DNA from: a virus
Taxonomy: Duplodnaviria > Caudoviricetes
DNA: 64,000 bases
Virus record (IMG/VR): IMGVR_UViG_3300013121_000023
Location: 113,133-177,132 of that record
Strand: one strand, 5' to 3'
Shown: in pieces, positions 11,665 to 22,353 of the stretch
How the letters are laid out: each line of letters begins with the position of its first letter
Numbering within the stretch: position 1 is the stretch's first letter
Program-made: the position numbers and the translations under genes
Notes under the pieces: model-generated
Database searches by the model: none
Seen by the model: the letters and a program-made list of their open reading frames with translations, nothing else
Told to the model about the DNA's origin: nothing

Positions 11665-11743
11665 AAACAAGCCGTTTTTAAATAAACGGCAAGGATTTAT
11701 TGCATGACGTGGCCTCAGCCCGCCTTATCTATGCAATACATCG

Positions 11744-11815
11744 AGCCCACTATGGGATTTGAACCCATGACCTACGGTTTACAAAACCGTTGCTCTACCA
11801 CTGAGCTATGTGGGC
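11744..11815 (-). tRNA. tRNA-Thr(UGU)
   Basis: ACGGT TT TGT AA ACCGT. Confidence 0.9.
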
Positions 11816-11818
11816 AGG

Positions 11819-11928
11819 AGCGACAGGCCCGAGTCGAACGGGCGACCAACGGAAAACCGCTGCTCTACGGGGCCATCACCAGACAGAACGTTACTTGTCT
11901 GGCTTGTGACCTACTGAGCTACTGTCGC
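11819..11928 (-). ncRNA. tRNA-like RNA with expanded D loop and truncated anticodon arm
   Basis: Acceptor GCGACAG/CTGTCGC, D stem GCTC/GAGC around about 50 nt, arm GCGG-TTTT-CCGT, normal T arm. Confidence 0.75.
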
Positions 11929-11951
11929 AAAAAAGGCTTATATAGCCTTTG

Positions 11952-12023
11952 TGGATCGTCTAGGAATTGAACCTAGGCACAGCGCTTATAAGACGCCGCA
12001 GGGCAACCAGCCCGTCACGATCC
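11952..12023 (-). tRNA. tRNA-Ile(UAU)
   Basis: GGCGT CT TAT AA GCGCT; acceptor GGATCGT/ACGATCC. Confidence 0.75.
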
Positions 12024-12102
12024 ATAAGAGGTACACCGGAGACCCGATGAAGCCTTCCGCCAGCATGGTAGGAAGAAGGAGTGTCACCACGATGTACCTC
12101 GG

Positions 12103-12652: not shown

Positions 12653-12734
12653 AAAGCGAAGAGGAATTGAACCTCTTATCTCCATTTCGGTAGTTGGCCT
12701 AGATGGATGGTTTTTGCCTTTAACCTACGCTTCA
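12653..12734 (-). ncRNA. tRNA-like RNA with 17-nt anticodon loop
   Basis: D, T and acceptor arms present; TCCAT-[CTAGGCCAACTACCGAA]-ATGGA. Confidence 0.6.
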
Positions 12735-12738
12735 TAAT

Positions 12739-12884
12739 GAGACCCGAGTTACTGCACCATTGTCCTTGTTAGGACTGGTTTTGGTTACCAGTTGCCGACC
12801 ACCGGCACCTACCCCTTATACGGGGTAGCTAGGATTCGAACCTAGTTTTTGGGGTTGCGTGTAGGATGCAGTTGTTTGGGTCTC
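12739..12884 (-). ncRNA. Structured RNA B with circularly permuted tRNA module
   Basis: T arm, loop-closed acceptor stem, D arm and anticodon-like arm inside paired ends. Confidence 0.65.
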
Positions 12885-12886
12885 GG

Positions 12887-22262: not shown

Positions 22263-22281
22263 CTTTTTAGCGTTTCGTTAG

Positions 22282-22353
22282 CGCGGGTAACGGGACTTGA
22301 ACCCGTACATAAGGATTTAGAATCCTATGCTCTACCAGTTGAGCTATACCCAC
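22282..22353 (-). tRNA. tRNA with CUA anticodon (amber suppressor type)
   Basis: GTGGGTA/TACCCGC-G73; TAGGA TT CTA AA TCCTT; canonical D and T arms. Confidence 0.85.

Follow-up and report, generated by a model that had tools for sequence, protein, structure and literature searches.

The usual view of tRNA genes in phages is that they supplement codon reading or stand in for tRNAs that a host defence has destroyed. What, then, is a gene with the body of a tRNA and no anticodon, standing in the middle of a phage tRNA array? Such an element, a tRNA-derived gene of 110 nt, runs on the minus strand from 11928 to 11819 of the stretch of phage DNA analysed here (the window: 64,000 nucleotides, bases 113133–177132 of a virus record that is complete at 177,132 bp and has direct terminal repeats). 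DNA near-identical to this phage is present in activated-sludge, digester, soil, and river metagenomes from at least 10 studies. We examined the anatomy of the element, its origin, and its recurrence elsewhere, and weighed what it might be for.

Genomic setting

ARAGORN and Rfam place 10 tRNA genes in the phage genome, all of them within the window and on the minus strand, and nine of the 10 form a single array. The element lies inside this array in the same orientation, with tRNA-Ile(UAU) 22 nt upstream and tRNA-Thr(UGU) 3 nt downstream:

13121–10274, minus strand: tRNA array, in the order Tyr, Leu(UAG), Leu(CAA), Arg(UCU), Ile(UAU), Thr(UGU), Met/Ile2(CAU), Val(UAC), Lys(UUU)
11951–12023, minus strand: tRNA-Ile(UAU), the upstream neighbour (ARAGORN)
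11929–11950, minus strand: 22-nt spacer after tRNA-Ile, with a weak hairpin AAAGGCU-AUAUA-AGCCUUU and then a U run (sequence)
11816–11818, minus strand: 3-base spacer CCU between the discriminator and tRNA-Thr, encoding the CC of a CCA end (sequence)
11743–11815, minus strand: tRNA-Thr(UGU), the downstream neighbour (ARAGORN, Rfam)

The 3′ end of the element therefore reads discriminator U, an encoded CC, U, and then the first G of tRNA-Thr. The hairpin in the upstream spacer gave no call in a terminator scan. Degenerate-looking tRNA-like stretches occur in the same array, from 12733 to 12653 and around 12845, and there are tRNA-sized spacers too. The phage tRNA-Tyr is 80 nt long and of the long-arm bacterial type (ARAGORN), from which we take the host to be a bacterium and thus to have no splicing endonuclease.

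The surrounding genes say little about the element. The ten ORFs around the array matched no Pfam family, no aminoacyl-transferase or synthetase gene lies near the element, and a search of the whole genome for partner genes found no TROVE/Ro60, RtcB, CCA-adding enzyme, or RNA ligase. A neighbouring 164-aa protein has homologues at 38–64% identity, and the four of their contigs that we examined carry zero tRNA genes. Because relatives of this flanking protein have no tRNA array there, the array appears to be specific to the lineage. A 153-aa ORF within the array has one homologue only, on a contig that stops short of the element, and a locus search seeded with two neighbouring proteins returned no relatives.

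The sequence of the element comes from a metagenome assembly, and its interior is known from one assembly. Four DNA sequencing runs gave almost zero cover over 11816–11916, and low-depth contigs break at tRNA-Thr. Counting against an assembly artefact, the same architecture was recovered from 12 other assemblies made independently, among them the finished chromosome of an isolate (L205, described below).

An intact tRNA body with a sealed arm and a D-loop hairpin

The element can be divided into the parts of a tRNA as follows, listed from its 5′ to its 3′ end after the whole gene:

11819–11928, minus strand: whole tRNA-shaped gene, 110 nt including the discriminator U at 11819 (sequence, folds, and an end-to-end match to covariance model R1)
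11922–11928, minus strand: 5′ strand of the acceptor stem, GCGACAG (7/7 pairs with 11820–11826)
11921–11920, minus strand: U8 and A9 (sequence)
11916–11919, minus strand: 5′ strand of the D stem, GCUC (pairs with GAGC at 11862–11865)
11866–11915, minus strand: D loop, 50 nt (sequence)
11871–11911, minus strand: D-loop hairpin, 41 nt, 13 bp with an interruption (free and constrained folds)
11862–11865, minus strand: 3′ strand of the D stem, GAGC, followed by A26 (sequence, constrained fold)
11849–11860, minus strand: shortened anticodon arm, GCGG-UUUU-CCGU (sequence, free and constrained folds)
11844–11848, minus strand: variable loop UGGUC, with G45, G46, and C48 present (sequence)
11827–11843, minus strand: T arm GCCCG-UUCGACU-CGGGC, 5/5 pairs (sequence)
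11820–11826, minus strand: 3′ strand of the acceptor stem, CUGUCGC (sequence)

The body of the molecule is that of a normal tRNA. Every pair in the acceptor, D, and T stems (16/16) is Watson-Crick, and the nucleotides of the tertiary core are complete: U8, A14, G15/C48, A21, G10-C25:G45, C13-G22:G46, U54/A58, and G53-C61. The element has the canonical 7-bp acceptor stem, 4-bp D stem, 5-bp T stem, and UUCRANY loop together with these core nucleotides.

An ordinary D loop has 7 to 11 nt. The 50-nt loop of the element holds GGUCA-CAA-GCCAGACA-AGUAACGUUC-UGUCUGGU-GA-UGGCC, which folds into a hairpin whose outer helix, GGUCA/UGGCC, is followed by a 3x2 internal loop and then by an inner helix of 8 bp, GCCAGACA/UGUCUGGU. 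At the apex is a 10-nt loop, AGUAACGUUC, with the palindrome AACGUU. There is no second copy of the insert anywhere in the 177-kb genome, and on account of this single copy we rejected an origin of the insert from a mobile element.

The anticodon arm is reduced to a stub of 12 nt, as compared with the canonical 17, with 4 bp (5 if A26-U is counted) and a 4-nt loop. Because the stub closes with a loop of 4 nt, the element holds no anticodon; the canonical arm of 5 bp and 7 nt that presents an anticodon after U33 is absent from it. The element cannot decode codons. We also considered the converse reading, in which the long hairpin is the anticodon arm and the stub a variable arm, and rejected it: the 10-nt loop lacks the U33 pattern, and this reading also leaves 35 nt that fit no variable arm.

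Folding agrees with this anatomy. The minimum-free-energy fold has −50.5 kcal/mol, as compared with −34.5 ± 3.4 kcal/mol for shuffled sequences (n = 200; z = −4.7), and none of the 200 equalled it; the fold constrained to the cloverleaf has −48.9 kcal/mol, only 1.6 above the minimum. An earlier note made from the letters of this DNA had described a tRNA-like element with perfect acceptor and T arms, a D loop of about 50 nt containing a stem, and no proper anticodon arm, and our analysis bears out all three descriptions: 7/7 and 5/5 pairs on the minus strand, a 50-nt loop with the 8-bp inner helix, and a 12-nt GCGG-UUUU-CCGU that is without an anticodon and cannot decode.

Known RNA classes at the locus

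The element escapes the usual tools. ARAGORN makes no tRNA call at its position, and no meaningful call with loose settings and introns allowed. The Rfam tRNA model (RF00005) finds no match at the element, neither at its 29-bit gathering threshold nor at E-values up to 10. There is no tmRNA in the window according to ARAGORN, and the element is only 110 nt long and without a reading frame. The sole match to the YrlA model (RF02553) scores 28.7 bits against a threshold of 69 and covers the 3′ half of the element together with the 5′ half of tRNA-Thr. We rejected a YrlA identity, since this sub-threshold match straddles two genes, the topology of the element is unpermuted, and neither a Ro60 nor an RtcB gene is present.

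Origin of the element

The likeliest ancestor of the element is a tRNA located 5′ of tRNA-Thr(UGU), possibly tRNA-Gly(UCC). The Gly identity set of bacteria includes G1-C72, C2-G71, U73, G10-C25:G45, C35, and C36 (PMC9976931). On the acceptor side, G1-C72, C2-G71, and U73 are all present in the element, as the earlier note had pointed out. On the anticodon side the identity is lost, C35 and C36 being paired with G71 and G72 (in the numbering of the 110-nt element) in the stem of the stub. In the Stenotrophomonas phage S72, a tRNA-Gly stands directly 5′ of tRNA-Thr(UGU), in a position matching that of the element, and this tRNA-Gly(UCC) resembles the element in its acceptor identity, D stem, core, and T arm as well as in its place before tRNA-Thr(UGU). 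Set against a canonical tRNA-Gly(UCC), the element differs by its 12-nt stub and 41-nt D-loop hairpin, and by being called neither by the Rfam tRNA model nor by ARAGORN.

Two observations make the glycine ancestry less secure. Freed of its insert, the element has a similarity of 52/69 to the phage tRNA-Lys, 53/69 to the phage tRNA-Thr, and 50/69 to the S72 tRNA-Gly; descent from tRNA-Gly(UCC) is uncertain because the phage's own tRNA-Lys and tRNA-Thr are as similar as the S72 tRNA-Gly. The stub had also been proposed to be a Gly(UCC) arm short of 5 nt, and this proposal stands in part: the letters UUUUCC fit it, but the stub fits a Thr(UGU)-type arm that has lost GUAAA equally well.

Recurrence of the design

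We found no direct relative of the element. In IMG/VR, no exact match turned up to words taken from the hairpin, from the stub, or from the T arm together with the acceptor stem. When the array and the element were compared by blastn with 50,697 phage records, the matches were generic tRNA ones only, and no orthologue was among them.

The architecture itself recurs. A first pattern, GTAGCTCAGT, 30–60 nt, GTAGAGC, 16–32 nt, GTTCGA, which leaves the length of the anticodon arm free, hit 20 loci in IMG/VR. At 15 of them a complete tRNA comes after a 5′ fragment of a tRNA. The remaining five are complete cloverleaves, four of them distinct (L016, which equals L022; L017; L020; and L027), with 7/7 acceptor pairs, a hairpin-bearing insert in the D loop, and an arm of 14–15 nt closed by a loop of 4–5 nt. 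Every cloverleaf with a D-loop insert that this pattern found in viral DNA also carried the sealed stub. A second pattern, which required a short arm, hit more than 113 viral loci and gave one more insert-bearing member, L063.

The second pattern also brought up dozens of tRNA-like genes of 66–72 nt that have normal D loops. In these genes GAAA, CUUG, UUUA, or a similar sequence replaces the anticodon loop.

A metagenome scan that required the short arm added L143, L148, L150, L151, and L152. A scan of 185,579 cellular genomes with the arm length left free returned mostly fragment-plus-tRNA duplicates; it gave two further short-arm members, L205 on the finished chromosome of Desulfonema magnum and L257, and a number of DPANN archaeal tRNAs with D-loop introns, which keep normal anticodon arms. 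The set then totals 13 distinct sequences including the element, with arms of 8–15 nt and an arm of 5 bp and a 7-nt loop in none of the 13 (0/13), although recurrence is partly built into this result, since all patterns fixed the D-arm sequence and the position of the insert and two scans required a short arm.

We define the group informally by two features. A hairpin-bearing insert of 30–55 nt lies between position 16/17 of the D loop and its GGUA end, and the anticodon arm is 8–15 nt long with a loop of 3–8 nt, the acceptor stem, D stem, variable loop, and T arm being canonical. The element shows both, with a 41-nt hairpin in its 50-nt D loop and a 12-nt arm. It deviates in that its D loop ends in CCGUA, not GGUA, and its sole free GG lies 5′ of the hairpin.

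Most members are solitary, with no tRNA within 1 kb, and since most stand apart from tRNA genes the members are not simply debris of tRNA arrays. One exception is L063, which lies on a 233-kb contig in a large tRNA array, 3 nt after tRNA-Gln and directly 5′ of tRNA-Thr(UGU). The stand-alone members lie between genes of the same orientation, in early or recombination regions. No neighbouring gene is common to the members of the group; genes seen beside them encode RecT, an RNA ligase, ThiF, Rad52, and a PD-(D/E)XK nuclease.

At the level of sequence, the 13 are mostly non-homologous in their inserts, and the insert of the element has no similarity to that of any other member. Two homologous sub-groups can be recognized, L143/L150 and L017/L020/L151/L257, within which the acceptor stem and T arm are kept and the stub varies. 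A D-loop motif, GUAAAUG...GCCCGGNAGGGU, is common to L017, L020, L151, and L257 only. Against a covariance model derived from five other members (R1), the element matches from end to end with 50.7 bits, and tRNA-Arg and tRNA-Thr reach 50.6 and 50.2 bits. The model thus scores ordinary tRNAs equally and does not mark off the group statistically as a family of its own. As judged from these comparisons, the 13 sequences represent a shared design, and a homologous family by descent is not shown.

We found no description of a D-loop hairpin combined with a sealed stub in the full-text literature, and no such entry in Rfam 15. The design matters for annotation in two ways. Genes like the element are missed by ARAGORN and Rfam here, its score lying below the Rfam tRNA threshold; L027, L150, L020, and L151 pass that threshold and are taken as tRNAs, inflating phage tRNA counts. 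The combination of sealed stub and elbow hairpin is compact and readily recognised.

Codon usage and rival explanations

The phage favours each of the sense codons that its tRNAs serve: ATA makes up 0.60 of Ile codons and AGA 0.40 of Arg codons, and GTA, ACA, CTA, and TTG have fractions of 0.38, 0.34, 0.24, and 0.22. GGA accounts for only 0.16 of Gly codons, and we conclude from this low usage that a role in Gly(UCC) decoding was either long lost or never present. Despite the low usage of GGA, the element contains no helix-breaking change.

These data bear on the most obvious alternative to a selected RNA, a young pseudogene, which we consider a real possibility though not the probable one. 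It would be a phage tRNA, Gly(UCC) or similar, that was disabled by two independent indels (the anticodon loop lost 5 nt, and the D loop gained a palindrome of 41 nt) so recently that point mutations have not followed; it would still be transcribed and processed, and be idle. A single 5-nt deletion indeed turns GCGGU-UUUCCAA-ACCGU into the observed stub. The degenerate tRNA-like pieces and tRNA-sized spacers indicate that tRNA genes decay in this array, relatives of the flanking gene, which lack the array, indicate that it is young in this lineage, and we found no orthologues that show conservation. Perfect helices would also be expected of a very recent copy with two indels. Nevertheless, two rare indels without a disruptive substitution, leaving 16/16 pairs and the tertiary nucleotides intact, would be an odd form of decay, and what was inserted is a highly stable hairpin at a site of the D loop that tolerates extra bases. 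That GGA is little used suggests that the phage has not lately depended on a tRNA of this kind. Moreover, the same pair of changes, D-loop hairpin and short arm, recurs in 12 other distinct sequences, mostly outside tRNA arrays, which strengthens the view taken from the outset in the earlier note that intact pairing argues against simple decay. The array itself offers a contrast, the element being intact and its other tRNA-like pieces visibly degenerate. Codon usage, intact helices, the degenerate pieces of the array, and recurrence together lead us to favour a selected RNA over a young pseudogene.

Other functions and fates can be imagined for an RNA of this shape. It might serve the array, its tRNA shape giving RNase P and trimming enzymes their cut sites and aiding the folding of the precursor and the release of tRNA-Ile and especially tRNA-Thr, with the excised RNA left without a job. 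Dimeric tRNA precursors of T4 and tRNA-like punctuation marks are analogues of such an arrangement. The 3-nt spacing to tRNA-Thr would suit it, as would the placement of L063, likewise 5′ of tRNA-Thr(UGU) and 3 nt after tRNA-Gln, and that of the stand-alone members between same-orientation genes in early or recombination regions; the features that were kept, the acceptor/T limb and the elbow core, are those that RNase P reads. However, tRNA-Thr and tRNA-Ile are already full RNase P substrates, which makes such help redundant, and neither the D-loop hairpin nor the conserved D-loop motif of the L017 group would be explained. We regard this explanation as improbable. Somewhat less probable again is a glycine carrier outside the ribosome, loaded by GlyRS via its acceptor stem and then used either to donate the aminoacyl group or to bait an enzyme whose substrate is Gly-tRNAGly. 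The element does have G1-C72, C2-G71, U73, and the G10-C25:G45 triple, which Gly identity uses (PMC9976931), and a CC is encoded after its discriminator; the report that the toxin TacT selects Gly-tRNAGly by U73 and G71 (PMC9976931) also counts for this possibility. Against it, C35 and C36 are buried in a stem and not presented by a loop, and the acceptor stems of the other members are unrelated and mostly have A73. Both facts make efficient charging by GlyRS doubtful, the latter implies that glycine charging is not shared by the group, and no gene for an aminoacyl-transferase or synthetase is nearby. Finally, the element could be a genuine tRNA with an intron in its D loop that is spliced out after transcription, as might be suggested by the DPANN archaeal tRNAs, which the same search pattern retrieved and whose inserts of 24–50 nt lie at the same position of the D loop (L154, L156, L192, L220, L222). 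But these archaeal genes keep an anticodon arm of 5 bp and 7 nt, which the element lacks; the bulges of its hairpin lie opposite each other in a 3x2 loop and not at the 4-bp offset of a bulge-helix-bulge; the host, bacterial as judged from the tRNA-Tyr, would have no splicing endonuclease; and removal of the insert still leaves no anticodon. An intron is therefore effectively refuted, and we give it hardly any credence.

A probable non-decoding tRNA mimic

On balance, we lean towards the reading that the element is a selected, non-decoding tRNA mimic that is matured by the tRNA enzymes of the host. From what is known of the maturation of tRNA arrays, it would be transcribed together with the phage array. 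RNase P would cut at G1 and again 3 nt downstream of the element, at the start of tRNA-Thr, and this cut at the 5′ end of tRNA-Thr would also free the 3′ end of the element. Exonuclease trimming and CCA repair would then complete the encoded U-CC end. The product is predicted to have the L shape of a tRNA, its acceptor/T limb and core being normal. Its other limb, short and capped by UUUU, would end out of reach of a codon, and at the elbow the 41-nt hairpin would jut out of the D loop's variable part. Against this reading counts the search for orthologues of the element, which yielded none that could show covariation or conservation.

What such a molecule would do is more conjectural; the earlier note offered a decoy, an aminoacyl donor, or a codon-independent A-site RNA as possibilities. 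We suggest only tentatively that the element may work through its tRNA body instead of serving as an adaptor, in that it occupies, distracts, or recruits a protein that grips the acceptor/T limb or the elbow. Candidate targets would be a host defence enzyme or toxin directed at tRNA, or else an enzyme that handles tRNA. With its stub sealed, the RNA would be of no use to the ribosome and presumably uncleavable by anticodon nucleases. More speculatively, many phage lineages may have repeatedly rebuilt tRNA genes into one device, with a sealed short limb, an elbow hairpin, and tRNA-like maturation. The device would target one class of proteins that grip tRNA, as their decoy or adaptor, for example to neutralise a host defence directed at tRNA; the element would be one member, derived from tRNA-Gly. 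We think this broad proposal unlikely to hold in full. Still, a recurring tRNA-shaped RNA that does not decode points to a third phage use of the tRNA fold, beside codon supplementation and the replacement of destroyed tRNAs.

Comparison with known systems

Several known RNAs share one part or another of this design. The DPANN archaeal tRNAs have an insert of similar size at the same position of the D loop, between AGU and GGUA, but their anticodon arms are normal and their inserts presumably spliced, whereas the element comes from a bacterial-virus context and has no anticodon. In mascRNA, which is cut from MALAT1, and in engineered tRNA scaffolds, the anticodon arm is reduced or replaced and tRNA enzymes release an RNA that does not decode. 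These RNAs are eukaryotic or artificial, have no D-loop hairpin, and bear no sequence relation to the element. YrlA (RF02553), a Y RNA that mimics tRNA and is found in bacteria and some phages, is like the element a non-decoding copy of the acceptor, D, and T parts of a tRNA. In YrlA, however, the order of the parts is circularly permuted, a Ro60-binding stem closes the molecule, and there is a link to an rsr (Ro60) gene; the element, by contrast, has its ends in the acceptor stem.

The closest likeness is to phage T5, in which RNA1, RNA2, and RNA3 (NC_005859, misc_RNA) are annotated as 'tRNA-like stable RNA with unknown functions' or 'putative tRNA-like RNA'. Like the element, these three lie within a phage tRNA region, on the strand of the tRNAs, and abut real tRNA genes. 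Their predicted folds have an acceptor-type closing stem, a T arm with UUCGA or UUCAA, and no normal anticodon arm. There is no sequence similarity between the T5 RNAs and the element by blastn, and model R1 gives the T5 RNAs 7.7–13.5 bits. RNA1 and RNA2 differ further from the element in their length (144 and 125 nt) and in where their extra helices lie, which is within or next to the anticodon and variable region, with no hairpin in the D loop. The stable tRNA-like RNAs of T5, which have stood in annotation for decades without a function, are the nearest described precedent for the element.

Degenerate tRNA-like sequences and spacers in the tRNA array

The nine-gene phage tRNA array also contains a degenerate tRNA-like stretch, tRNA-like pieces and two tRNA-sized spacers between real tRNA genes:

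12653-12733, minus strand, degenerate tRNA-like stretch of 81 nt
within 12760-12886, minus strand, lone T arm CUAGG-UUCGAAU-CCUAG
12024-12100, minus strand, tRNA-sized spacer of 77 nt
11665-11742, minus strand, tRNA-sized spacer of 78 nt

Neither ARAGORN nor the Rfam tRNA model makes a call on the stretch at 12653-12733, and its plus strand is matched by an Rfam model that responds to tRNAs in antisense. Its acceptor stem (GAAGCG/CGCUUU, 6 bp) is followed by CCA, its D arm is GGUU/AACC, and its T arm is AGAGG-UUCAAUU-CCUCU. The stem in the anticodon position, UCCAU/AUGGA, closes a loop of 17 nt. At 12760-12886, the lone T arm is followed by a hairpin (CUACCCC-GUAUAA-GGGGUAG), with D-arm-like and anticodon-arm-like sequence 3′ of it. 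This arrangement resembles either the boundary between tandem duplicates of a single tRNA, with the outer half of each copy decayed, or a permuted tRNA. For the spacer at 12024-12100 the predicted fold is a long hairpin (−31.3 kcal/mol, z = −3.2), and the spacer at 11665-11742 contains a terminator-like hairpin at 11690-11671.

Codon usage and an amber-suppressor tRNA

Codon usage across the complete phage genome is strongly fitted to the phage's own tRNAs: 60% of Ile codons are ATA, served by the phage tRNA with anticodon UAU, and 40% of Arg codons are AGA, served by the one with UCU. A further tRNA gene lies 9 kb from the array:

22281-22353, minus strand, canonical amber-suppressor tRNA (anticodon CUA), labelled 'Pyl' by ARAGORN

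Despite this tRNA, the phage genome reads best in the standard code, which gives a coding fraction of 0.934. TAG is the stop codon in 45 of 187 ORFs, and reading it as sense across the genome brings no specific gain.

Surroundings of other members of the design

Two further members of the design (a tRNA body with a D-loop hairpin insert and a shortened anticodon arm) lie at these positions:

L063, 3005-3108, member on a 233-kb viral contig
L020, 6251-6371, member of the design

On one side of the L063 member tRNA-Gln lies at a distance of 3 nt, and on the other tRNA-Thr(UGU) at 14 nt; the array comprises 19 tRNAs and also encodes a tmRNA (11705-12060). The L020 member has a RecT gene on one side and, on the other, an RNA ligase gene followed by an exonuclease; its relative at locus L151 adjoins a Rad52-type gene.

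Other tRNA-like genes with altered arms

Solitary tRNA-like genes of 66-72 nt occur on dozens of IMG/VR viral contigs (examples are L029, L039, L040, L058, L071, L088, L100 and L101, among others). Their D loops are normal, and a loop of 3-6 nt replaces the anticodon loop (as in CUAG-GAAA-CUAG and CUAAG-GAAA-CUUAG); ARAGORN either passes over them or lists them as 'tRNA-???', giving an anticodon of two letters. A very common, nearly invariant tRNA-like element (L028, L033, L042 and about 30 more loci, many from metagenome 3300045988) is likewise solitary. It has a normal D arm, an arm CCAC-ACUUCC-GUGG with a 6-nt loop, and an acceptor GAGAGAC/GUCUCUC in which each strand is offset by 3 unpaired nt.

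D-arm inserts also occur in cellular tRNA genes. In two bacterial MAGs (L231 and L240, one of them Acidobacteriota), tRNA genes whose anticodon loop is a normal 7 nt have a roughly 20-nt hairpin (UCCCGAGGCCCUCA...CGGGU) inserted after GGUA in the D arm. In DPANN archaeal MAGs (L154, L156, L192/L235, L220 and L222), tRNA genes with normal anticodon arms have D-loop inserts of 24-50 nt, presumably non-canonical introns, at the same D-loop position as the phage hairpins.
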